From assembly GCA_036172245.1 (NCBI GenBank), contig JAYWIR010000033.1, positions 2,108,001-2,172,000 on the forward strand: DNA of 64,000 nt, written 5' to 3'. Numbering within the stretch: position 1 is the first letter of the stretch; each line of letters opens with the position of its first letter. Below, piece by piece: positions 24,830 to 64,000 of the stretch. The notes under the pieces were generated by a model. The model ran no database searches, was not told where the DNA came from, and was given only the letters and a program-made list of their open reading frames with translations. A program made the position numbers and the translations under genes. This stretch comes from Raillietiella orientalis (Eukaryota).

Positions 24830-25535
24830 AGGCTCTGTTTTAGCCTTTTCAGTGTTCTCTGACTCTTCCTGATGCTTCATATGAAAGGCCGCGCCACCGG
24901 CAAGACATACAAGAGAGTTAACACCAAGAAGACGAAACTCCACGCTGGCAAGACTGGACAAAACGCGCAAGCTATCAAAGCTGCCAAAGAAATAGCTCTA
25001 GCCACAGATTCTATGCTTCTGAACGTTTCAAGTTGATCATCCAGATAATCTATCTTGTCTGATTTTCTAGCCTCTTTTTTGCTACTCCAATAGAAATATA
25101 GCGCATAAGAACACCATGGAAAGCAGCACGCACAAGCCAGTAACTTTCTATTATCTTCCGAGTCTTTTTTCTTGTCTTCTCTGCTTTGGTAGCTGTTATT
25201 ACCATAGTTAGCATTTGTTATATTAGCAGTATGACCACGCCCACCGAACGTTGTAACAGCAAATAATCCCAAAGGTCTAAACCTCTCTTGTGCACGTGTA
25301 CATGTATATCCTGAGTGCCTGTAGGTCGACCGCCATTTCTCTCGTTCTGTTCTATTTTGTGCATTATTTAGATTTCGACTCTCAGCAAATTCTTTCTATA
25401 CCTCTGCAAACCTATCCTCACTCCAAGTTAAGCTCTGTATATTATTACAATACTGCAAAAACCCTTTAATATTATCGTTGCCACCATATTTTTTTATATA
25501 GGCTAATGCATACCTTTTTAAAACACTATCACCAT
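24830..25535 (-). pseudogene. Decayed bacterial-type (endosymbiont-like) membrane protein gene in an AT-rich island
   Basis: One intron-free frame runs from about 25530 to 24877 with a single TAG (25396-25398): DSVLKRYALAYIKKYGGNDNIKGFLQYCNNIQSLTWSEDRFAEV*KEFAESRNLNNAQNRTEREKW...DYLDDQLETFRSIESVARAISLAALIACAFCPVLPAWSF. A frameshift probably continues it as LLGVNSLVCLAGGAAFHMKHQEESENTEKAK. The ATG at 25535 is one base out of frame and follows GGGGT. Sampled 60-nt lines are 23-33% GC, against 58% in the flanking line at 24661. Confidence 0.65.
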
Positions 25536-25574
25536 AAATACCCCATTAAATTAAGATTAAATTAATAAACACTT

Positions 25575-25603
25575 ATCATAATAAAATAACGTTCTCTTGT
25601 CAA
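25575..25603 (-). promoter_or_regulatory. Bacterial sigma70-type promoter (-35 TTGACA, 17-nt spacer, -10 TATGAT)
   Basis: The minus strand reads TTGACA agagaacgttattttat TATGAT. It lies about 40 nt upstream of the pseudogene start, on the same strand. Confidence 0.7.
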
Positions 25604-28084
25604 CTTGGGCCTAAATCGTAAAACATACCTACAAACAACCCAAAAACTTTTTAACCTCGGATTCATAGCCTTCACTCAATGACTAACAGAATAATTCATT
25701 GTGGCATACATATGGAAAAATGTAAGTTTTTTTAAAGATCCATTGAAATTTCTGAGCTTCTGTTATACTATTAATAAGTTCAAGTAAAAAAAATTAAAAG
25801 CTATTGTGTAGTAGTTTGGGATTAGTAGCCAAATTGGCTCTGGAATTTTCATGCTTCCAATCAGCACCGTGGCCAAGTCCTAGAAAGCAGTGACTTTCCA
25901 TGTTGTCCACGTGGCAATGCAGCCACCCTCCGCAGTCGCGGTTCCACTAAATAGTGGCTGGTTCCACCAACAACTACACGGCACCTATCATTAATAATGG
26001 ATGCTCTATTGGGGACTGCAGGAAACGGATTCCACTCGAGGTGAACTCTTATAGAATTTTCGCCAAAGGGCAGCAACACCTTCTAGAGAGTGGTGTGCTT
26101 GTGAAAAGGGTATCAGGGGCCATTCCGTATCCCCACGCCCCATCCCAAAACTATTGCAAAGTGCCCGAAGGTTCGTATGCACGGAGCTTTTTGAAGCTTC
26201 CGAAAGCCTTCGCCGGTTGTGGGAAGCACAGAATGCTTTTTATGATATCCTTGGAGTGATCCCGGAAACCGCAATACGCCTCGACTTCAGATCATAGAAC
26301 TTTGGATCCGCAGAAACGGAAACGAAGTCTGCATACTGTGATGGACCGTCGTGAAATTAGAACACGTGTAGTTCTAATGTATTGTATGTAGTTCGTCGTG
26401 TGTGTGTGCCACCCTGTAGGGACGCCGGCATCTCCCTAGAAGCGAATGCGCATCTTGACGACTTCAAGGAACCTTCAGATGCTAATAAAAAAAAAAGAAA
26501 ATCCCTTGCGAGCAGGGAACCGTCGCCCTGCAAAATGATCTTTCAAGTGACATCGCGCCCTAAAGCTCCTATTAAACTGTCCCCATTTTGTCGCATTCTC
26601 CTGGATCTGTCCCGCTTTGAACGGAGTCATGTTCGCTCCTCTCTGACTTCTTAACGATCTTTAAATCCGATCCTCATCTGCGAATTCCAGCATCTTGGAT
26701 AATCTCCATCCAAGATTCTGTGAAACAGCCTAGGTGTCGGAGGCTGCGAGATCACGCCTAACGGGATCCGAACGGGATTACGCCTGTGAGTTTTGACGAA
26801 ACCTCGACTGCTTCGTAGCCAGTGATCCAGTGACGTCAGCGGGACACGAGAAGATGGGCCTCCGAGAAACCTACGCTTCTGACCTTCGAAAAAGGAAAAC
26901 GGAACCGGAAGTTGCGCTCCCTGGAGTGAAATGTCATCCACTGAGGTAATGTAACTTTTTTCAAGGTAAATTTTGGTGCCAGCAAAATTCCCTTTTCCAT
27001 CGAATGGAAAAAAAAAAAAAAAAAAGCAGACGCATCCTCCGATTACTGTGTTTTTATCGGTCCAGGCAAAGGAGACATTCCTTCTGGGGAAAAAGAAAAT
27101 GAAAAACAAAACGTGTTCCAGGAGCAATAAAGCATTCAGGATATTGGCAGCTTCAGCCAGCAGGCATTTGACTACCTCGTGTGCACAAACAAGTGGAACG
27201 GCTTCTGGAAACCTCAGGGATTTGCAAATCTTTCCCTGAATTCATAGCAGCTCTTTAACTTTCATTTCCGAGCATCCAGATGAATCGATTTTAAATCTGG
27301 GCTCTGAAGGTATCGTTTGACTGAGTTTAGCGAGGGAGAGAAGACGGGAGAGGAAAGCATCACCGGCTGATTCTCTCTTGAGACTGCGGAAAGGATGCAA
27401 TTATTTTGGAACCATTCGGAAATTCTCGATACCATGGAATACAGAAAAATGGCGCCTTTCCATATATCACCGGAGCACTTCCCTCCGCCGCGACTCCGGG
27501 ACGAATGAGATATTCCTCCTTTTTTGTTTCCGTCTCCTTTTACAAGTCCGAGGAGCGCACGCCGTGACAGCAAAGCCATCTACACCTCGCCTTTGATGGA
27601 TCGCGGTCTTTTTTCAAGCCTTTTCTTTGCTTTTGTTTTTTTTTCCCCCGTTAGACGCTACAGGAATGAAGGAAGATTGAGGGGACCTCGCGAGTGCTGC
27701 ACCAGGGAGAGCGCGGGGGTCCGCAGAACACGCTGATCCACCCGGGAGCCGCAGGAGAGGATTCGTGTTCTCTCATTCCCGCCGAGCCAGGGAACGCAGC
27801 AAGGCCTCCCTGTCCAAGGAAGTTCGCTTCCAATGCTTCCGTTCCATCAGTCGGGAAGCAAACGGTCAAGGGTGAAGAATTTACCTACATCGGAACATCT
27901 GTTCCGATTTCGCAGCGGTCCCTGGCAACACGGGGACTCCATTTCGTGTGTTTTTATGTAGGTTATTTATGGCTGCTCGGATCGTCCTACCAGAAAAAGG
28001 AAAGACTTTCGTGTCGCGCCTATTACTTCTAAGCTTTTTTTTTTTTTTTGGATTGTGGAAGCAACCATGGAAAAGAAAGTTGAA

Positions 28085-38700: not shown

Positions 38701-41700
38701 TCCCCCCCCCAAGATGACTCTGGTTAATCTACATCCGGGTTTGGCACTGGTTGAAGCCGGATGCCCCTGTTGGCTGGCCGGGATTGGAAGTTGACCCTCT
38801 GGGTCTTTCCAGGAATCAAAGAGCAGTGGTTCCCTTCGGGCGCTCCTCCGATCATGCAAACTGAATCGTATCATGGTGCTGGTTGATTGACACCTGTTCA
38901 GAGTGTGAAGTGCTCTACTCCCTCCGGAGAGCGAACCTTTCAGAGAAAGATTGGGAAGCATCCCTTCGGAGTTCTCTTCAGAAGAGGTAACCAAGGGGCG
39001 GTTCCCTTGTGGGTTTCCTCCGGAGAAGAAATAATAGAACGGCCCTCTCCAGAGAGAATGAAGAAGAGGTTCCCTTAGAAGACAACCAGGGTGGATAGCT
39101 TCGTTCTGGGTTCTTTCCCAAGCGTAAGAGGAACGGGCACCTACTCCGGAGCCTTCCCGGATTCATAGAGTGATCCCCTCTTGGAGCACCCTCTAACTTG
39201 AGGAGTCAACACGAACCTCTTGGTAGCGTGGAGCTGTCAGAAAGCTTCGTAAGCTGAGAGATTCCTGCGTGCTTAGCGAATTCGAAAAATCCAAAAAAAA
39301 TTCTCATCTTTAAAGGGAATTCTTGTTTCTGAGAATCCTGTGTTGTAGCTCGAGATGGAAAAGAAAAGAAAAGAAAATGTTGCTCGTCGCGACCACTACA
39401 TCGTCATCCGCATGGAGGGTCATCTTCCACCTCAGTTACGTTCCGAACTTTGACCTCATTGGTTGCTGAGATCCATGACAGAAATGTGGAGTCCATGCCT
39501 CGTGGGTGTGAATGTCTTTTTCCAGGGAAACGCTTCGTCTTTCAGCCGAGGAGAACGCTCGAGCGACCAGTTGCAGGAGGCGGAATTTCCTCCCTGCCGA
39601 CTTTCCTCCCACAGAAAGCTCCTCCATCCACGGACTAGAAATGTCACCTCGCCCGCCCGCCTGGAAGGGATTGTCTGAGATGCGGAAGAAGGGACATCAA
39701 GGGACATCCTAGGAGCAATTCGTATCTGCCGCTAGCTGGGCTCCAAAAGCCCTTCCTGATTCCAAAAAGGGTAGCATACCTATGGTGAAACTGGTTGGGT
39801 TGAGTAGGAGAGAGACGGCTAAGTTAGGGAGAGTTAAACAGACAAGGGGGTAGGGAGCGTAGAGTTCAAAGGAGTTACGTTAGGTCGGCCGAATTCAGAT
39901 AGGCGAAGAGAAAGTGGGAAGAATTGGGTAATCTTTAGTGGAGCAATGAGGCCAGCTAAGGAGCGATTCCACTCCCACGACAACGGCTGGCGGTGCGAGT
40001 GATGTCACATGGAACGTGAGAACAAAAGAAGTGGGTGGCGAGCTTCAGCCATCCCGCGGAACGAATAGTCATGCAACAATCGAGGAAACCCCTGCCACCT
40101 CAGGGGAAGAAGGGCGGAGGTCACCCATCCGCCGGAACTTCTTCCGGGTGTCCACTCCTAGAGGAAGGCATTCGCGAAGAGCAGCAGAGGTCGAACTGCT
40201 TGGAAACCTGCGCGCTCACGCGGCACGCGTGTGGCACCTCCCGTGCTGCCGAGGGGTCTCTGGGAAGCAGGTGCGTTCGCAGGTCGCGTCACAGACCCGG
40301 AGCCAGCGGGACCATCCGTTCTTGAGCCGTCGAGCTCCCAAGGGAAACTGGGAGGTGAATAACTGCACACTAGGGGAGGAGGAGTCCTGGAAACCAAGGA
40401 CCCATTCCACTTCGCCCTCTCCTTCCCGACCTCGCTCCTCCGGGAGAGGACGTCGGGAACCTTCGCATCCTTTCCTCCTTCTATGAAATTCTCCTTCCAT
40501 CCTTTTCCAGGGGACCAGAAAATCTTCCCTCTCGCGTCCCTTTCTTTTCGTGGCCCGTTCGCAAGTCCCGTTTGCGTCCCGAGAAACGACCGGCTGCCAA
40601 GTAGGACGTGGTGGTCCTGGAGCACTCTGCCTCCAGACCGCAGCGGGCGTTGCGGAGCTGGGAGATCCCCTCTACTTCAGAAGCACAAAAGGTTGGGAAG
40701 GAAAGGGGGGCTCAACCCTTTATTCCCCATCACGACCTAGTGAAGCGGAGCCTATGGCTTGGCCATCGGACAGACTCCGGTATTGTCACTCCAAAAGCAT
40801 CCTCCGATCTGATGAAATGCAGCCTGGAAAAGTGAAAGAACGGTCTCCCCGGGAAACGGAAGAGAACAACACCCCCGTCATCACATTCCCGGCGGAATGT
40901 GATGACGGTTTCTGGACCTCAGATTGGCGAAATGGGTGCTCGATCGCCGTGCTACCCTGAAGGAGCTCTTTCCTCTCAGAATCTGGGGCTATTCAGCGGT
41001 CCCAGGAAGCCTTCGAGTTCTCCTCGTCATTCGAGGAAATCCCGAAACCTCCCATTCGACCAGCCAAAGAGAAGGGGTCTCCACGGGAACAACGGCTCAT
41101 CTCCTCCTTCTCCCTTTCCCATCTCCACTCCCTCGTCCTCCTCCTCCTCTGTCGGTACACCGTCCGGCGGGAAAAGATCGCAAAGGCATTCCGAAAAAGC
41201 GCGCTCGCGCGCCTTCTCCAAGGTGGCGCCAATGCTTGCGCTTCCTGGCGTCCGGCTTCTCCAGGACACTCGCTGCTCGTCCGCCAATCGGACGGAAGGC
41301 GATGCCTCTCCCCTCTCCCCCCTCTTCCTGCGAGGGAGGCAATGCAGCGCCACCTACGATTCCTGGAATTCCCCAGGGCTGCGAAGATCCCGCTCCTCGT
41401 TCCTGGAGAAGAATATTGCGACTTTCCCCTTTCCTTTGCTTCCCGGTTCCTTGAACAGGGTAGATTGACGACTCCGAGGTGTGACTATCGAGAAGGGCAG
41501 TGACCGTTTTGTTGCTGACCTCCCTGATGGGTCGGGACGAAGAGCCGAAGGACTGGGGAAAGTCTCTTCCCCTCGACCCCTCCACCTCTTCCTTGCTTTC
41601 TCCTCAAGGTCGCCGCGGGGTCGCCTCGAGGCCCCACATCCATTCCCTTTCCCTCCCCCCCTCTTCCTCCTGCATACCTTTTTCCGTGACAGCGTCTCCC

Positions 41701-44700
41701 CACTGATCGTGCCACCTGCCGACGGGTTCCGGGTAGCCTTCCCCAGAGCACTCCAAGGTTGCGGCGCCCCCTTCGGCCGGTCTCAGGACGGGGCGGACGG
41801 CCTGCACGCTCGGCGGGACTTCTCGGCGAGGGGGAAGAAAAGAAAAACAGGTCGGCCTCCCACTCTCAGGGCGGGAGGTGGAGGGAAGAGAAGTGAGGAG
41901 GATGCCTACAGTGGACGTGCAGAGTGATCCTCTTGGACACGGATGGAGGAACCCCGTTCGAGGCGATGCAGAGGTAGGAGCCCGCGTGGGCGCGCGTTGC
42001 CGGGGAGAAGTGCAGGCTGGCGGCGTAGATACTGCTGCTACTGCTGCCGTTAGCTTCTGGAAAGCAACCAAGGGGCAGAGGGGTGGAGGCAGCGACCGCG
42101 GAAACTCCGGGCCGTTACCTCGTTCGTCGTCTCCTAGCATCAGTCGCTTCCCATCCTCCCTCCTCCAGAGGGTAATGGGCGCAGGATAGCCTAATGCATG
42201 GCATCCGAGTGAGACGCCGCTGCCCTCCCTGATGGTAACCTCGGAAAGCGTCTCGGCGTCGTCGATGTACGGGGGAACTGGAAAAAGAGCGGAAAGAGGA
42301 GAGGCGCAGGTTGCCCTCTGAAAACGAGGAGTGAAGTCTTTCGCAAATTCCAGAGAATCACAGTGGCAGGGGTCTTCGCAAATTCTGAGGAATCCCGGGA
42401 AACGTGTGTCGCGCTGCCATTCCTTGAAGGGTGGGGGGTGCATCTACCCGCCCCAACAGACAAAGAGACGCAGGGTCCCTCGGAGACGCTGGAGACCTCC
42501 AACATCGACTATTCTCTGATCACCAAGGTTTTCTCTGCTCGGGCGATCCCGAAAGTCAAGTTCGTTTCCCTCCCCTCCCTCTACCCTTCTTTTCTAGAGG
42601 CAAGATGAGACCGAAGAAGAAATGAAACGAGAAGCGCAACTCGGAGGAAGATGAGCAGCTGCAACAGCGAAGGAAGAGAAACCACAGCCATCCGAGGACA
42701 GGGGCAGATGAAAGACGCTCTGCTGGACGAATGAAAACTCAATGTTAGCTCTGGAAGCCTGGAAGTCTGTGCTTCCAGACTGCTCTGGATGGGCTCGTAA
42801 ACAGGACCAGAGGACCACACCTCGAAGCGTTCGTCCTTGAGAAAGTGCTCGCGGTTTTCGAGAGTCTCTCAATGCAGCGCGGATGAGGCAATGTGGAACG
42901 AGTGGTCCGGACCACCTCGGAGCACGCTCGGGTCGGGGCCACAACTTGGCGATGAACAAAATAATCAGGTGTCTTTTGCTCTGGCATACCAGATGCATCC
43001 TCGGAATGGCTCTCGTGATAAGAGGCTCAATAAGAGGAAATGTAACCAGTTAGGTCAGGTAGGGTGGATTAATTTAGGCTTTAGGTTCAGCTGAATAGTT
43101 GGAACATGAAACGTTGAGTTGAGCTAGGTCAAGTCACGTTAGATAGGTAGGCAGGCTAGGAAGGTTAAGACATCGGTGAGTTCGGGGCGGGTGAGTTGAG
43201 TCACACCTGAAGCTTGGAAGGGCTACTCGGAAACCACTCAAGGGGTACATCCTGAGGGAGTCCAACACTTACGATGTTGAAAAGGATTTTGATTTCCTGT
43301 CGACTTTCCGAAAAAACTTTGATCCACCTTTCCTCCTTTTCCCCTCTTCCTGATGGAGAAACGCGAGTTTTCGCAACCAGTGGCGTCAGGGGTCACATCA
43401 GGTCAGGGGATGAAGAGGATTAAGTAGGAACTGCTGTGGTGAACTTTCATTCCTGTTGAAAACTCAGGAGATTGCGAAAAGGGATGAAATTATCCATATC
43501 TGCCTTGCAGTGGAAGAAAGAACCTTTTCCAGGTGTCCAAGTAAGATTCCGCTTCGTGGGAAGATCATGGCAGCGCCGGGTCATAGATATTTGAAAATGC
43601 TGCATAAACAAGAGGTTTCAAGCCGCACGGTTCCCTGATAATTATCTAATTATAAATTCGGAAGAATTCAAATGGTGGGATCAGGAACTTAGCCATGCAC
43701 TGTTGCAGCAGAATGCCTCGCATCCTCCTCGTGCCAAGTGTTACATCCCCAAAAGAAGAACAGATGATGAAATCCCTCTTCGAAACATACGAGGAAGATG
43801 AGTTCCGTTCTCCAAACCCTTAGTCTGTGAAAATCTTTCATCTGCTGATAAGGAGTTATACGTGCAATTCTTGAATGGCAGAGAGTCGATGCCATAGAGA
43901 AGAGGAGATTTCCAAGCCAACAAACGTTGGCTCTGGAACCACATGAGGTCCATTGCAGCAAAAAGCCAGCCCATGGCTGCTGCAGAAGTTGGTACATGCA
44001 GAATTTGATTCCGCCATTATTCATCTGTCCCTCATCTTTTCCCTTATTCACGATTATGTAGCTGGAAGCAGAACCCCTTTTTGATTTGCTGAGGCTCTGA
44101 TCGTTAAGAAAGCATCTGTTGGCAACGAGTGAGATGCTCCTGATTCACTAGTGATGTGATGCAGGCTTTTCTCAGACCGATGCTTGGACATTGGACTCCG
44201 CGCACAGGCAAACACTTGCAGATTTTGAGACCGAGAAGCTTTTGGCTGCTGCTTCGAGTTGCCACCTTTGCTGCCACCACAGATCCACGCGCTTCTTCCT
44301 CATAGCATTTTTCGGACAGACATCTGCATGCCGCTCGAATCGAAATGCTGAGTTCCAAACTTCATGTCAGTTCATTTGCATCAGAACGGCTAACAACTGT
44401 TGGCTGAAGAACAAGAGATTCGATTTTTTTTTTTTAGCTGATTCCACAAAACTCTTCGAACGTGGGCAGCATGCCCTAACGATGGAGACTTGATGACGGA
44501 CTTTTCAGAGAGCATCATCTTCCTCCTCCTCGGCATTCGGCAGAGCAGTGCTTGTTAGCAAGAGACTGCGGAGCTCCACAGATGAATGCTTTGGGACCAA
44601 TGAATGAAGTTCTCTTCACATTCGGTGACGATCGGCGTAGGTGGTGAGATGAACATCATTGATGAAGGATCCCTGGGTTTCAACAACGAAGAGTTTTTGC

Positions 44701-57359: not shown

Positions 57360-57530
57360 AGAGCATGAAGAGGACGAAGAGGAAGATGAGTATTGAAAAG
57401 AAGAAAAGTGGATGAAGAGGAAGACATCAAATACATGAAGGGGGTAGGAAGAGGGAGAGGAGGAAGAAAGAAGAACAGGGAATAGGAAAGTAGGACGGTT
57501 TGAGGGAGGAATAAGAGGAAAGAAATGCAG
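57360..57530 (+). repeat. Purine-rich (GAA/GAG) low-complexity tract
   Basis: gaagaggaagatgag...gaagagggagaggaggaagaaagaagaacaggg. Confidence 0.6.
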
Positions 57531-58639
57531 GGAGCAGTGGTGGGACGACCTTGGAGTACTTGTTCGCGGCCGCCCACTAACCCGAGGCGTCACCCGGATA
57601 TGCTGCCAGAGAGCCAGAGGAGGAAGGGAATGGGAAAAGGGCTTTTGACTGTGGCAGCGACAACATCCACTCCTTCCACAGACTACCAGGACCTCCTCGC
57701 CACTGTGGCGAGCGTGGAGGAGAAAGGTGGGAATTGGGATCAACCAGAAAGTTTGCGAAGAGCCTCAGGGAGCGCAAACTCCCTCTGTCTCTGTGCACGG
57801 GTCCTCTTTGGTTGCTTGCGGGAGAACATGCAAAGGTGGGAAGAGCCCCCTTGCCCTCTCAGCGGCCCTCTAGGGGGCAGGGTAAGGATCGATTCCTCGC
57901 CCAAACCTCCCACTCGCTCCAGGTCGAATGGCTGCGGGTATGGGGGGTCAAAATTCAGAAGAGAGAACAAAGAGAAGAGAGGTGGACAAAAACCTCTCTG
58001 CAGTCTCCTCTCCGTGTGAGTCCCTTCCCGCCTTGTCTCCCACCCCACTCACCGAGGCTGAGCCAGAAGAGGCCGATAGCGACAGCTGCTGCTCGGGACG
58101 CCCCACGCATGGCGGTCCTTCCTCGCTTCTTCCCTGGCAAAGGCGCACGGTTCCCAGCTATCCTCCCTCTCGTCCGCTTCCGCCGGCGGAGGGGCCGTGT
58201 CTGGCCGCGCGCGGAGCGCGTGTCGCCCGTGCGCGCGAGGGAGGGAGGCACGTCTGGAGGGGACCCGCCGCCGCCCTGAGCGCGCATGCGCTGAAGACTC
58301 ATGGGCGCCGGCAGGACGCCGCCACACGCGCGCATTCGACCAGCTTGCGGAACCCCCCAGGGATCACCGCCATCCAAACCCGTTCTCCCCGGACGGCGAT
58401 CAAGTTGGCAACAGGAATCAGGAGGGATGGCCTTCCGGCGGCATTCGAGTCCTCGATCCCAGGAGCGCACGGTGACGGTCCCGAAAGGTACTCTTCCGGT
58501 GAAGTGGGTCGTCTGGAAGCGGCTTCGCGCCTGTTCGAGGGGAGGAACTCGGCACACAATCATCCAGGAGGAGGGGTCAGTTCTGCGGTGTGTGCCATGC
58601 AGGCCAAAGAGGACCCCATGGAGATAGATGTGAATGGGA

Positions 58640-58890
58640 TCCAGGAAGGCGAAGAAGGCGATGAGTAGGGGAAGATGAAAAGGATGAGGAAGAGGGTAAA
58701 AATAATGTGGATGACAAGGATGAGAAATAAGAGAAGAAACTGGACTGTGGTGATCGCAGTAGCGGAGACGAGGAAGCCAGATGAGGGAGAGAAGTGGGTG
58801 GTGGAGAAATGGACTGATAGCAGCAGTGATGAAGAGGCAGAACAGGAGAAGGAAGCGAGGGAGGAAGAAGTGAAGAAGAGAAGAGCATCT
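58640..58890 (+). repeat. Purine-rich (GAA/GAG/GAT) low-complexity tract
   Basis: Almost entirely A/G triplets. Explains the long Ser/Leu/Phe-rich shadow ORFs on the minus strand. Confidence 0.55.
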
Positions 58891-60469
58891 ACATTGGATC
58901 CATCGAGTAGTTGGTGCGCTTGCACGTGGGCTACTCGCGATGTCCTTTCTATGTACCGGCAGCTTCTCGAGGGGATTTGACGTGTCCTCCACGGAAGCAG
59001 ATCCAGGGGGGAGAAGGGACAACTCCAAGGGTCCAACAAAACTCCCTGGAACGCAGCGGCCGTTCCTTGCTGGATACGAGAGCCCCCATCCAGAATAAGA
59101 GAAAGAAAAGAGGAAGAGGAGGAAGAAGACAATGACAGCTGGCCTCTGAGTGCTGTGTGTGCTCCAAAGATCGGTAAGACTTCTGATCCTACTTCCCTCA
59201 CCAGGAGGAAGCGTGTTCCTGCCTTAGCAGCCGGCCTTCCCGAGTTCTTCGCGACACAGAAGTCCGCTCGTTCCTGAAACGCCCCGCCCTGCGTGCAGCA
59301 GACTTGCCGTCCCTTTCCCAGGACTCGTCCGCTGCCCGGGAAGCGAGAGAGCAGATCCCGAGCTCTTGCATGCGCTCCTCCGGAAGTGACGAGTGAGCAG
59401 GGTCTAACGGCCCGTCGTCGCGATGGCCTTCTTCCCGGGATCCCTGAGTTCCCCTCGGGCATTTTCTCTCCCCGAGATGAGGAGCGCGTCTTCTCGCTCC
59501 AGAGAACCCCGTGTGGGTTACCTGCATCCCACACGGCACAGGAGGAGAGGCGAAGGGCTCTCGAAGTCTTCCAGGGAGCGCTTTGCCTTCCCCTTTCGGT
59601 TGTGCGAGCAAAGAGAGGGGGGCGGCAGCTGCTCTCCAGGGAGGAGAGAGGAAGGAGAGAGGTGCGAAGGCAGAGAGAGCTCCCCGCCCATCGATCGCGC
59701 GCGCCCCATGGAAGCTGCTCGCCTCTTTCTCTCCGGCTCCAAACGTCCAGCATCATTTATTCATCCCTGAGAGGGTTTATCAGGTGATGGGAATCTCGCG
59801 TGCGTCCGGGAGTCTGCTTCTCACGCTCAACGAGTCTCTTCCCTCTTTCCTTTTTTCCTCCCTCCTCCTTCCCACGGCTTGCTCGGCGACCCGGCCCGCT
59901 CTAGCGACCTCTGAGGCCGGCGCTGTTCCCTTTCGGCGCGCCCCGCCGGCAGGCCTAAGGATCCACGTTTCAGGAAAAAAAAAAAAGGGGAAATCTTTCC
60001 TGGAGGCGAGTGAAACCCGCACGGTTACCCTGGAAACAGGAGTCGGGAAGCTTTCTACCAGCACTCAGGGAATAGAAGCATCCCCGCGGAAGATAGGGGG
60101 GAATCTGTACAGGGCTCCTGATGAGCTCGAGTCCCTCGGGACTGGAAACCGCGATCTGAGCACAGAGGAGTCGCTTTAAGGGAAGAGGGTTGAGGCACGC
60201 GCAGTCGCCAGGAAACCGTCTCCTTTCCGCGGGAAACTTCCGACAGCACTGTGTCACACTTGCTGGAGTGAAGACCCGTTCGCAAGGAACATCGACGGTC
60301 CTCCTTCCCAGGCACGGAAGAGGCGTGTGAAAGAGATATTTGGGGGGAAGAAGCAGGGGAAGAAGCGTCAAGGCGATGGGGCCCATCACGTCACAGCTTT
60401 GGTAGAGAGTCCCTTCCAGTGCATCTCCTCCTTGTCTCTCAGGGCACTGAGAGTTGCGATTCGCAGCAC

Positions 60470-61117
60470 GCGCAGTCTTGGTGGCTACGGGCGACCAGTA
60501 CTGGCCACTGATACTTCGGGTTAGGGGGTACCACGGGTATGAACTACTTCATGAATCCAAGAAAGACTCCGGAGGAAGGAGTCCGTTCCTCTCACTCTTG
60601 GGAGGAAACCCCCAAGGGAAACACCTCTTCTCTTTTTCTCTCCGGTGGAATTCTCCGTTAATGGGGTCACTCCCCATTCTCCTGTAGGAACCCGCAAGAG
60701 AACCGCTTCTTGCTATGTTTCTGAAGAGAACCCTGAAGGGACGACTCCGAATTGCTCTGAAGAGCACTCTCTAAGGGAGCTTCTTGCACTCTGGGAGGAC
60801 AACCCCCTGAGGCGAGTAACAACCAGCTCCATGGTACTTCGGCTTCATTTTTAGAACTGGAGGTGAAGCCCGAAGAGCTCCTTGGATTGGAAACCCTCAA
60901 CAGTGAACCTCCAATCCCAGCCAGTCAACGGAGTCATCGGTTTCTGGCGACAACCACCAGTGCGGCGCCCAAAACCAACAAACCAGCCATTTTGCGGGAG
61001 AGGAATCGAAACCACGGCGCCTCTGCCAATCTCGGCGTCGATTCTTGCCGAGTATTCGAACCAGCGACGCTCGGTACCACGAATGGAGAGCGCGCCCACT
61101 CGGCCGCCAACGCGGGC
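60470..61117 (-). mobile_element. tRNA-headed SINE-like family copy
   Basis: Minus strand gcccgcgtTGGCGGCCGAGTGGgcg...gctGGTTCGAATACtcggc (A-box-like and B-box), body gggttctcttcagaaac, tail ctttcttggattcatga. Confidence 0.78.
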
Positions 61118-64000
61118 ACCTTCGATGAGGCCATCTGCAGCCTGTCGATTCCTTGACAACGTACGTGAGAGGTGGAGAAGTGGTCTCCGCGCGGGAGAGC
61201 CACAAGCGTTCCACAGCCGACTCGCCGGTCGTCCTTCGGCCTCAGCCTTGAAGCCGAAGACGCTAAGAAATTCAGCAACCTCCGGAAAAAGCGACGCCTC
61301 GCTGCCCTCACGAGCGCCGAACTGCAGGGGAGTTTCCCCCTGGCTCGACTTCCTCCATCAGTCAAAGCAGAGGATTACGGATGCAGCATCAGGGAAGCGA
61401 AAGAACGAGAGGAGGAGGCGAAAAAACAGTAGCGGCGGCAGTTTTGAATGTTAGGGATTTCCTCCCTCCTCCTTTCTCCCTTCCTCTGTCTCTTTCTTAT
61501 CTCTTCGTCGGATGGGCACTCGAATCTCTCTCAGTACCTAGATCCAAGAATGAAAAACGAGGAGCTTCGGAGAGAAGGGTTTTCAGCCACCCGCGCATCG
61601 TCTTCCTCTGCTTGCTCCGTGGGCGGTGCAGGCGACGTTCCGTCTGCCAGCACCGTCGGCTCACGTTTCCGGTGGGATCACTTGGACACGACTGCGCCAT
61701 TCTGTCACTTGTAGGGTAGCTACCGCTTCCTCCGTCCCGAGTGGCAGCCACAGGGGCTCCTCTCCGGGCAAGCGGCTCGGGCATCGCTAGTCAGGGGCGC
61801 CTCCAGGAACTTTTGCCAAGGGCGGGAAAACCGAAACCTTCCTGCACCTTCTCGAGGACTGCGATCCGCTCTTCAATGCAGAAATGAGCGCCAGGAAGGA
61901 TTCCTGCTGTACCCTGGAGACACTTCAGTAAGGTCTCTGAGGCTCTGCTTCACTCGCGTCAGACTTTTCGCTCGCTAGCCCCGCCCTCCGAGTGCGGCTC
62001 GCGCCGTGGGGATGGAGGTGTCAACATGGCAACGGCACAAACGGGAAGGCGTCCTCTTTGCCTCTTCCGTGGGGGACGAGGAATGTGGTGTGGTGGCTCT
62101 ATACTTAGCAGAAAGTGCGGAGGAAGACGTCGCCTGCATCTCTGCGAAGGATGCGGAAGACGTGGAAAGTACCATCTATTCCTCCTTATATTCACTTTGT
62201 TTTTTTCTTTCTGTTTTCATCCACAGTTTCCACCCTTCGACCCTGTTGGCTTACTGCTCACTCGAACTGTTAGTCGGTGGCCAGACCTCTTACTTCTGGA
62301 GTGCCCTGAAGTCCACACGGGAAAGGCCTCGGTGTGGCCAAAGACATCGACGTACGTTGCACGGGAAATGCCTAGTTCAGCAACAGCGTCGCTGAGGAAA
62401 AACTCCCAGAAATACCAAGACAACGAGCTCTGTAGCTCGCAGTGTTGAGCATTTGCAGATGCTCCGAGCACGATCTGAGAGCACGCGAGATCGTAGCGGA
62501 TGTTTAGATTTTCGGCGCTGGCACGAACCGTTTCTTGAAAGTTCCAAGTGTTCCGGCGCGTGCTCTTCCTGGAGAATCAAGGTAAATCAGCCAATAGTCA
62601 CTTCAGCCTTCCTTCACATCGCATCTCATGGGAGCACCGGAGGAAGGCTGAGAGATGTGCAAAGGACAGCAGTCTGCGCTACTGGATCGTTGGACTGAGA
62701 AAGGGAATCTGGAAGTGGACTCGTTCTCGAAGGGCCCATCGAGTCCGCTGGTGGTGATGGCAACTGGAGCACAATTCCTGGATAAGAGAAATGACGCTCC
62801 AACTTTCGGATTGAAGATGGCACCTGACACGTCTCAGGATGTTTTACCTCTGAGAATCGAGGTTCGAACCCGGTCTCTGAAGCCTCCAGGTTTGCCAGCA
62901 AAACACTCTATCCCTCACGTTTAGGTGAGTCTTTGCCTTCCAAGCCTGCGAGTCGTGTGCCGCCATCAGCCCACCGGAATTTCTTCCTTGGCGACGTTGT
63001 CAAACCAACGTCGCCAGAGGCTCTCGGGTTTGCGGAATTGATCTCCTCTTCTAATTGCCAGCTGAGTTTTGGGTCATCTGAAACGGTAAGAAAGGATGCG
63101 ACACGTGCCTACACGAAAAGAAAGTTCCTCATACTTCAGTGGGGGATAGGAATGAGAATGTTGCAGATGAGTATGGAGGATCAACGAGTGAAGGAATGGA
63201 CAGAGGTAGGTTGGACGGATTATCCAATGGAGGTGTGATGCTATCACTGGTTTCTCGTCCACAATAGTCCTGATACGCCTTGTACCCCACCCTTCAGTCC
63301 GGTCCATTTCGTCGATGAGGAAGATGGAAAATGCAAACGTAACCTTCTTATGGGACTGTCACAGACTTCTTCCCTTTTGAAGTTTGCCCACGTAGCGGAA
63401 GATTGCCTACAAGAAGACTGCTGGTCACCCAAACAGGTCAACTTTCTTTCTAGCGGCTCCTCGGTAGCACCTTCGGAGAGTTGGAGCTACCCTTCAGTGC
63501 GGGTTCCAGTATACTGCTCAAAACGGAGCCACGAAAGAAATTTCTGCACGGCTCAGAGGTGAGCACATCTCTCTTAGGAATTCTCTCTTCGGACTTTTTA
63601 GTTACATTTACTTCTCCAGTGCATCTACAGCAAGACGCTGGGGTGCTAGTAGAACAGTCCCTCATTCCAGAGCACTTCCGGGGCATTCTGAGTAAATCTT
63701 TCTATACTCTGCTTCAGGGAGTATTCGTGTATGGTTCCCAGGGACTGCCGCGCTGCTATTGACCATGAGACGGACTCCGTGACTCCAGATACCACGCAGG
63801 TCATGCCCGTTGCCCAGCAGCCTTCACGAGAGAGCAGTTTTTCCTGTTATACAGGTGCAGAAGAGGGGTCACGCGGTACGTGACAACCAGCCAATGCACT
63901 TCGGGAATGCTCAGGCCCAGGATCCGCCCCTAGAGAGAATCCTTCTGCAAGCGAAAACCTGTGTAAAACGAACTGCATGCGACAGACGGAATCACAATGC

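Follow-up and report, generated by a model that had tools for sequence, protein, structure and literature searches.

A very probable nuclear Wolbachia transfer, small and degraded, in an animal germline genome

Background

An AT-rich island of about 1 kb interrupts a 64-kb stretch of DNA (the window), and the question it raises is whether it is bacterial DNA that entered an animal chromosome and decayed there, a piece of a living symbiont genome misplaced by assembly, or a transferred gene that still functions. The initial annotation, made by eye from the letters, had read it as Rickettsiales- or Wolbachia-like DNA with its own promoter, decaying within an arthropod locus. Homology searches, alignment and phylogeny lead to the conclusion, held here with high confidence, that positions 24836-25865 are a nuclear Wolbachia transfer (nuwt), short and decayed, in an animal germline genome.

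Extent and homology of the segment

24836..25865, no strand assigned: Wolbachia-derived segment (nuwt), 1,030 bp, 36.6% GC, with end-to-end homology (blastn, MAFFT) to the Wolbachia loci L008, L009, L003 and L010

Identity to these four loci is 74-79% (blastn/MAFFT). By genome, the nucleotide matches are 79% in G003, 76% in G032, 75% in G001 and 74% in G028, and they span all 1,030 bp, taking in about 270 bp of non-coding spacer as well as genes. Both edges of the homology, at 24836 and 25865, are sharp. The G+C content of the segment contrasts with 50.3% in the remainder of the window and with 51.5% and 49.7% in the adjoining 1-kb flanks; a profile averaged over 200-nt spans dips to 0.285-0.42 at approximately 24900-25900, compared with 0.48-0.57 in the flanks. 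The AT-rich island is therefore real, and the values of 23-33% and 58% originally quoted for it and its flank are line-level extremes rather than averages.

Matches to the segment occur in 55 of 60 genomes of the Wolbachia genus. A protein search gave 101 matches at E <= 0.01 among 273 candidates (best E 7e-60), nearly all of them Wolbachia proteins labelled 'hypothetical protein'. The matches labelled otherwise comprise a few metagenome-assembled genomes (MAGs) of Rickettsiales, one spider record and several entries without a name. The best DNA match, G003, has an ORF equal to P0004, a protein of 'Candidatus Wolbachia massiliensis'. Translated and DNA searches thus agree on Wolbachia, as had been proposed.

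The segment holds a minus-strand membrane-protein gene, a divergent intergenic region and the 5' stub of a plus-strand permease gene. Only G003, G032, G001 and G028 have permease, spacer and membrane-protein gene in unbroken order, in agreement with the tree described below; in G012, G002 and G044 approximately 0.9 kb intervenes. Both ends of the homology lie inside genes, as random breakage of bacterial DNA would give.

Decay of the membrane-protein gene

24836..25535, minus strand: pseudogene of a Wolbachia-specific membrane protein, residues 1 to ~246, with the final ~15-20 codons and the stop absent
25535-25533, minus strand: ATG start, same as the Wolbachia start region
25526..25532, minus strand: 7-nt deletion right behind the ATG (ATG, seven gap positions and GTGATAGTG in the window, ATGGCAGCAAGTGGTAGTG in L008), which puts the start out of frame
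25396..25398, minus strand: premature TAG, TAT (Tyr) in orthologues
25338..25362 (~25353), minus strand: frameshifting deletion of 17 nt relative to L008, from alignment to orthologues
25237..25250 (~25249), minus strand: frameshifting 16-nt deletion with loss of approximately 'CCINSL', from alignment to orthologues
25100..25161, minus strand: lesion cluster in the first transmembrane helix (~20-nt deletion at ~25136, +3 nt at ~25113, +2 nt at ~25100-25103)
24929..24931, minus strand: 1-nt deletion between the two C-terminal helices, from alignment to orthologues

After frame correction, the encoded product is 77% identical to P0002, 75% to P0003 and 72% to P0004 over 228-232 codons; intact orthologues are 258-315 amino acids long. 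Six indels shift the reading frame of the gene, which also has one nonsense codon and a +3 insertion that keeps the frame. Three of these lesions had been spotted by eye and are borne out by the alignment: the shift after the ATG (the 7-nt deletion), the TAG, and a late frameshift near 24935 (the 1-nt deletion at ~24931). Four mid-gene indels (~25353, ~25249, ~25136 and ~25100) and the C-terminal loss had been missed. The window copy has ten alignment-unique indel stretches, two of them adjacent and probably one event, versus one to five per Wolbachia sequence, and the reading frame is cleanly open in 17 Wolbachia orthologues. Judged from its sequence, the membrane-protein gene is dead.

Eight of the 25 Wolbachia loci examined (L004, L010, L017, L021, L024, L026, L028 and L029) were excluded from the tree as having truncated or stop-containing extracted ORFs, some of which may be extraction artefacts rather than real pseudogenes. 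L010, from the Wolbachia assembly G028, is likewise broken, by a TGA at codon 8 and 1-nt indels, so that pseudogenization by itself is no proof of nuclear location. The original argument from lesions to integration rather than contamination keeps its premise, with more lesions than were first counted, but does not suffice alone.

The pseudogene shares with the Wolbachia-specific membrane protein family (P0002-P0102) an N-terminal domain and three hydrophobic segments, and differs from the intact members in being broken. Some members are labelled DUF1129 by their sources, whereas P0004 and P0061 score 20.2-20.3 bits, below the Pfam threshold of 29.1, and P0049 is not matched at all; the window ORFs likewise have no Pfam match to DUF1129. 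Intact members score 18.5 bits against the TomO hydrophobic C-terminal domain, below the cut-off of 27, and no curated family model matched this membrane protein above its cut-off. A Pfam match of a window ORF to P_C10 (E 0.069) is at chance level, and no family was assigned from it.

Relic regulatory elements and the permease stub

25575..25603, minus strand: relic sigma70-type promoter TTGACA-N17-TATGAT, 11/12 consensus matches; the -10 box is TATAAT in 4/4 aligned Wolbachia
25540..25544, minus strand: relic ribosome-binding site GGGGT, 4 nt ahead of the ATG, identical among orthologues
25743..25771, plus strand: promoter-like element TTGAAA-N17-TACTAT, 9/12 matches, ahead of the permease start and within sequence conserved in Wolbachia
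25806..25865, plus strand: 5' fragment (~20 codons) of an APC-family amino-acid permease, beginning at GTG, with two TAG codons and 27 nt deleted ahead of ..FGISSQIGSGIFMLPIS; ends at the junction

Promoter-like sites in general are not enriched (5 found, 3.0 +/- 2.0 in shuffles), and TTGACA-N17-TATGAT is accepted as genuine on the strength of its conservation in Wolbachia orthologues. This promoter, the ribosome-binding site and the start at 25535 were all correctly recognized in the initial annotation, as was a plus-strand element, TGtTATACT, which lies inside 25743-25771, upstream of the truncated permease start at 25806. The permease family was assigned through the intact orthologue in L008, the 20-codon stub itself being too short for a direct test: the stub aligns to the start of L008 ORF 304-1587(-), which is an AA_permease_2 protein (PF13520; 163 bits, E 1e-47). 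In most Wolbachia genomes, a 45-nt piece of the stub (25821-25865) has two matches at 84-96%, in permease paralogues that stand in tandem. This element, repeated 1.37 kb apart in those genomes, was considered as an RNA gene and rejected, as it is the conserved 5' end of the two paralogues; Rfam and tRNA scans of the insert, two Wolbachia loci and the whole window found nothing, which also argues against an RNA gene.

The near-consensus bacterial promoter and ribosome-binding site that persist, together with a 172-codon frame (24877-25395) that is open by chance, might suggest a transferred gene that was domesticated and still works, or a non-coding RNA expressed by the host, and nuwt expression has reportedly been seen in a filarial nematode (PMC3849323). 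However, the open frame is off the homologous register for about 100 nt (25250-25350), the homologous frame past the 17-nt deletion being 25218-25367; a frameshift and the TAG stand between the ATG and the open frame; part of the first transmembrane helix is missing; substitutions are spread evenly over codon positions; and eukaryotic polymerases do not read sigma70 promoters. Continued function is highly improbable, and the insert makes no functional protein and most likely does nothing.

A donor among other Rickettsiales symbionts would accord with two close protein matches, P0003 and P0008, that are labelled just 'Rickettsiales bacterium' MAG. Yet the window copy nests within one GTDB genus beside named Wolbachia genomes, and a genome in that very genus (L020) has a gene identical to P0008. 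Transfer from host to bacterium is at odds with the bacterial promoter, the ribosome-binding site and the bacterial permease neighbour in conserved synteny, which fix the direction as bacterium to host. A different donor or the reverse direction has next to no probability.

Phylogenetic placement and substitution pattern

The donor, which could not be named by eye, can now be assigned to Wolbachia, beside the type genome of supergroup T. In the tree, the window copy is sister to L008 (UFBoot 94) on a terminal branch of 0.186 versus 0.025, part of which may be donor divergence rather than decay after insertion, the true donor lineage being unsampled at the DNA level. A search of metagenome contigs for a closer donor, by protein-profile scan and exact 27-mer scan, found none. 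Tajima's relative-rate test counted 82 unique changes in the window copy versus 18 in its sister (p 1.6e-10), a rate approximately 4.5 times faster, and three other outgroups gave 66-77 versus 20-27.

Changes unique to the window copy number 18, 18 and 23 at the three codon positions, weak support at most for relaxed constraint, because the membrane-protein gene evolves fast within Wolbachia too, with divergence nearly equal at the three positions, and the comparison has little power. By direction, 32 unique changes are AT>GC and 7 GC>AT, versus 77 and 49 for four Wolbachia pooled (Fisher p 0.02). This excess is in the direction expected for a host of 50% GC; L003, a Wolbachia lineage, is also AT>GC-biased (21 versus 7). 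Two marks by which nuwts are recognized are thus present: release from bacterial purifying selection, seen in the lesions and the faster rate, and DNA-level homology to Wolbachia that includes non-coding DNA and gene order.

Flanking DNA and integration

A DNA search of the approximately 63 kb of the window outside the segment, in which the positive control worked, found no other Wolbachia similarity; two further AT-rich patches (22.6-23.0 kb and 53.85-54.45 kb) were compared at the DNA level with five Wolbachia genomes and gave no match. No repeats were found at the segment flanks. The flanking DNA is metazoan-like. Only one of 150 window ORFs has a Pfam domain, an Ig domain in a DIP-like gene at 41.6-42.4 kb, for which Drosophila DIP proteins are the best match among solved structures (E 7e-12) ahead of vertebrate IgLONs (~1e-4); no longer protein relatives of this ORF were found at E <= 1e-5. 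The nearest sequence-atlas clusters are 'commonest Arthropoda'. The host is probably an arthropod, as judged from the one Ig-domain ORF. Of the arthropod locus first proposed, the setting holds, in that the flanks lack Wolbachia similarity and include the DIP-like gene, and the word 'arthropod' is weakly supported.

In the assembly, the segment is joined on both sides to DNA without Wolbachia similarity, and the 64 kb contain zero N gaps. Sequencing projects on arthropods often contain Wolbachia reads, the junctions are known from the assembly, and a broken copy also exists in one Wolbachia assembly (L010), all of which would suit a chimera in which 1 kb of living Wolbachia was wrongly joined into a host contig. 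Such a chimera would need two false joins separated by 1,030 bp, both well inside gap-free sequence, with the neighbouring Wolbachia genes absent on both sides, and it would have to supply a copy with ten alignment-unique indel stretches, three stops and a branch approximately seven times the length of its sister's. The one public sequencing run found (X1, 0.05 share of words), with no RNA run among the matches, also yielded a single 151-nt contig that reproduces the lesion-bearing 25049-25199 exactly; it lies inside the insert, reaches neither junction, and may stem from the same sample as the assembly. A chimera or contamination is unlikely, and the assembly and the decay pattern together point to physical integration into host DNA.

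Proposed origin and significance

Under the preferred reading as a nuwt, a stretch of approximately 1 kb of a Wolbachia chromosome would have been inserted into the host germline genome, presumably when a broken chromosome in an infected germ cell was mended by non-homologous repair. It would have begun within the amino-acid permease gene, crossed the divergent promoter region and stopped a little short of the end of the membrane-protein gene. Its donor would belong to the Wolbachia clade whose present members are the type genome of supergroup T ('Ca. W. massiliensis'), a bed-bug strain and louse strains, among others. After insertion it would have evolved neutrally as host DNA, decaying by deletions, frameshifts and the gain of a stop codon, losing its consensus -10 box and drifting from AT towards GC.

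Annotation pipelines could mistake such an insert for contamination or for a host gene, and on this reading it is neither. The germline of the host lineage would once have been exposed to a Wolbachia near the supergroup T/F clade, one data point for the history of the association. It is a tentative suggestion, more doubtful than not, that the segment is the fossil of a supergroup T/F-like infection in an arthropod lineage of approximately 50% GC that perhaps now lacks such a strain or any Wolbachia. If so, the long branch (an excess of up to ~0.16 substitutions per site over its sister) would date an old association, and the insert, if orthologous in related species, could be a marker for a host clade gaining, and perhaps losing, Wolbachia.

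Comparison with known nuclear Wolbachia transfers

Small degraded nuwts are common and their kind is well known, so that the present one adds no new mechanism. With the nuwts of arthropods and nematodes it shares Wolbachia coding and non-coding DNA, here within what is probably host sequence, arbitrary cuts, and decay by indels and stops. It is far smaller (1 kb, one near-complete gene and a stub) than the insertions of Drosophila ananassae or Brugia malayi, which are large or multi-copy; it is single-copy within the 64 kb, and its donor is related to a supergroup T/F-like clade in contrast to the common A and B supergroups. PCR-confirmed nuwts have been described in a mite without current Wolbachia (PMC5467014). 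The 'fossils' of Wolbachia infection in Dictyocaulus viviparus and filarial nematodes are reportedly degraded and long-branched and record the donor lineage (PMC4046930, PMC12693587). The segment described here is likewise degraded and on a long branch, and is a single fragment seen in a window of 64 kb.

Extent and source of the AT-rich island

GC content is about 50% over the whole window, save for one sharp AT-rich island that the initial annotation had pointed out and that sliding 200-nt windows bear out (0.285-0.42 at about 24900-25900, against 0.48-0.57 on either side). The segment at 24836-25865 has 36.6% GC, compared with 50.3% in the remainder of the window and 51.5% and 49.7% in the neighbouring 1-kb flanks. 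Its homology to Wolbachia breaks off abruptly at both ends, each within a gene.

When the minus-strand frame was used as a protein query (TAG read as X), 101 of 273 candidates matched at E <= 0.01 (best E 7e-60); almost every one is annotated as a hypothetical protein from a Wolbachia strain, and the hits also include a few 'Rickettsiales bacterium' MAGs and one spider record. Against fetched Wolbachia loci (blastn), 25865-24837 gives one continuous match to a louse Wolbachia contig (75% identity, 1,106 columns). DNA matches are present in 55 of 60 genomes of the Wolbachia genus, and four genomes align end to end: G003 (79% identity), G032 (76%), G001 (75%) and G028 (74%). These protein and end-to-end DNA matches support the Wolbachia/Rickettsiales-like origin proposed initially. 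The protein encoded in G003 is identical to P0004, labelled by its sources 'Candidatus Wolbachia massiliensis', which is described as the type strain of supergroup T (PMC7662661). No closer donor was found in metagenome contigs by a protein-profile scan or an exact 27-mer scan. The spider record (P0045), a 281-aa homologue deposited as a Trichonephila clavata protein on a 32-kb contig, represents either contaminating Wolbachia sequence or a further copy integrated into host DNA.

Gene content and relic signals

The segment holds parts of two Wolbachia genes and the spacer between them.

Features of the Wolbachia-derived segment
24836 side to ATG 25535-25533, minus strand: Wolbachia-specific membrane-protein gene (Wolbachia orthologues 258-315 aa)
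ATG 25535-25533, minus strand: GGGGT-N4-ATG, RBS-like element and start
25603-25575, minus strand: promoter TTGACA-N17-TATGAT, 11/12 consensus matches
Upstream of the membrane-protein gene: divergent spacer of about 270 bp, from alignment with Wolbachia
GTG 25806, cut at 25865, plus strand: 5' end of a gene for an amino-acid permease of the APC family, from DNA alignment

Of the membrane-protein gene, the part encoding residues 1 to about 246 is kept, ATG included, and the final 15-20 codons and stop are absent. The parent protein falls in no curated family; DUF1129 and the TomO hydrophobic C-terminal domain both match it only below their cut-offs, the first hydrophobic segment (P0004 residues 137-165) scoring 18.5 bits against the latter (NCBIfam NF047986, cut-off 27). 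Three intact orthologues (P0049, P0023 and P0007) have PPxY-like motifs (PPPY and APPY, for example) in variable C-terminal tails past the last hydrophobic helix; these motifs might be ligands of WW-domain proteins in the host, and the window copy ends ahead of this tail. An intact orthologue of the permease matches AA_permease_2 at E 1e-47. The 45-nt piece at 25821-25865, encoding ISSQIGSGIFMLPIS, has two matches in most Wolbachia genomes, spaced 1.37 kb from each other, since these genomes carry the permease as a tandem duplicate; an RNA gene at this place was rejected, RNA scans being empty and the tandem copies accounting for the double match.

Both the promoter and the RBS-like element with its start codon are present as first described. 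The -35 box is the same in all four aligned Wolbachia sequences, each of which has TATAAT as its -10 box, compared with TATGAT in the window; the element is the membrane-protein gene's own promoter. Activity of these bacterial relic signals would not be expected in a eukaryotic nucleus.

Decay of the coding sequence

Lesions in the membrane-protein gene were read from a frameshift-aware protein-to-DNA alignment and the DNA alignment.

Lesions in the membrane-protein gene (minus strand)
Directly 3' of ATG: 7-nt deletion
25396-25398: TAG for the orthologues' TAT
Near 25353: 17-nt deletion
Near 25249: 16-nt deletion
Near 25136, within the first hydrophobic helix: deletion of about 20 nt
Near 25113: +3 nt
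Near 25100: +2 nt
Near 24931: 1-nt deletion

The TAG that had been reported to break the long frame is present, as is the late frame change (near 24931); both frameshifts of the initial annotation stand, but not its total of two, six being counted in the alignments. Part of the open frame of 172 codons (24877-25395) does not keep the register of the homologous one. Frame-corrected amino-acid identity is 77% to P0002, 75% to P0003 and 72% to P0004 (228-232 codons). In the permease stub, two TAG codons follow the start, and a 27-nt deletion is present. Clean open frames are found in 17 Wolbachia orthologues, and in the window copy ten indel stretches are unique within the alignment, most of them deletions, versus 1-5 per Wolbachia sequence.

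Phylogeny and substitution pattern

The window copy was placed in a maximum-likelihood tree together with 17 intact Wolbachia genes, using 224 codon columns (loci L004, L010, L017, L021, L024, L026, L028 and L029 left out). Its sister there is the G003 gene (UFBoot 94), and both fall in a clade that also takes in the Cimex lectularius strain (L011 = P0010), a louse strain and two further genomes. Gene order agrees with the tree: among the 60 genomes searched, the permease start adjoins the membrane-protein gene only in G003, G032, G001 and G028, lies about 0.9 kb from it in G012, G002 and G044, and is far from it in the others. The terminal branch of the window copy is 0.186 substitutions per site, versus 0.025 for its sister, and Tajima's relative-rate test counts 82 unique changes versus 18 (p 1.6e-10), or 66-77 versus 20-27 when three other outgroups are used. 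By codon position (1/2/3) the changes unique to the window copy number 18/18/23, and by direction they are 32 AT>GC versus 7 GC>AT, compared with 77 versus 49 in four Wolbachia pooled (Fisher p 0.02).

Probable integration into host DNA

Two junctions 1 kb apart in gap-free sequence, gene-internal truncation at both ends, heavy deletion-biased decay with accelerated, position-independent, GC-ward substitution, and the lack of adjoining Wolbachia genes lead us to infer integration into host DNA. Decay alone is no proof of nuclear residence, since L010 (G028:C75:22298-26375), a locus of a Wolbachia assembly, also has a broken membrane-protein gene, with TGA in frame at codon 8, additional stops and 1-nt indels of its own; that locus might be a true pseudogene of its strain or a piece of host-integrated DNA that was binned into the MAG. 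One sequencing run yielded a match, a lone contig of 151 nt that has the exact sequence of 25049-25199 inside the insert and covers several window-specific lesions; this run may be the assembly's own sample and is thus not independent support. The window contains no Ns, no repeats were found flanking the insert, and the rest of the 64 kb gave zero further DNA-level matches to five Wolbachia genomes (positive control run). Going by what is known of nuclear Wolbachia transfers (nuwts), the most likely history would be that fragmented Wolbachia DNA was captured as a broken germline chromosome was being repaired, after which the fragment would have decayed neutrally.

Host sequence around the insert

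Among the 150 longest stop-to-stop frames, just one carries a Pfam domain, Ig_3/I-set at 41607-42443 (minus strand); the Ig-domain exons there, in a GC-rich (56-62%) region, belong to a cell-adhesion gene of DIP/IgLON-like type, and no other host coding sequence could be recognised in this set. Of solved structures, those of Drosophila Dpr-interacting proteins match it best (E 7e-12 to 5e-9), ahead of vertebrate IgLONs (about 1e-4); searching for longer proteins related to this ORF gave no match. The nearest atlas clusters are mostly arthropod, and together with the Ig matches they weakly suggest a metazoan, probably arthropod, host. The GC-rich block at 57500-62500 (55-61%) has long open frames on both strands, the longest 422 aa (57958-59223, minus strand), none with a Pfam match, and may consist of low-complexity sequence or of host sequence that lacks annotation. 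The window has just two repeats of at least 40 nt, both short, local and direct: 15546-15679/16138-16271 (134 nt, 93% identity) and 3966-4056/4134-4224 (91 nt, 80% identity). No Rfam families were found in it.

Comparison with known nuclear Wolbachia transfers

The observation behind the initial annotation is confirmed and its interpretation supported; though real, the finding is an ordinary one, of modest interest only for its donor affinity to a supergroup T/F-like clade and its potential as a marker of past infection. A table in PMC5467014 gives chelicerate genomes 30% to 52% GC, so that an arthropod host of 50% GC is not unusual. The same source describes nuwts of a mite verified by PCR (PMC5467014), and the insert is a member of this well-described class.
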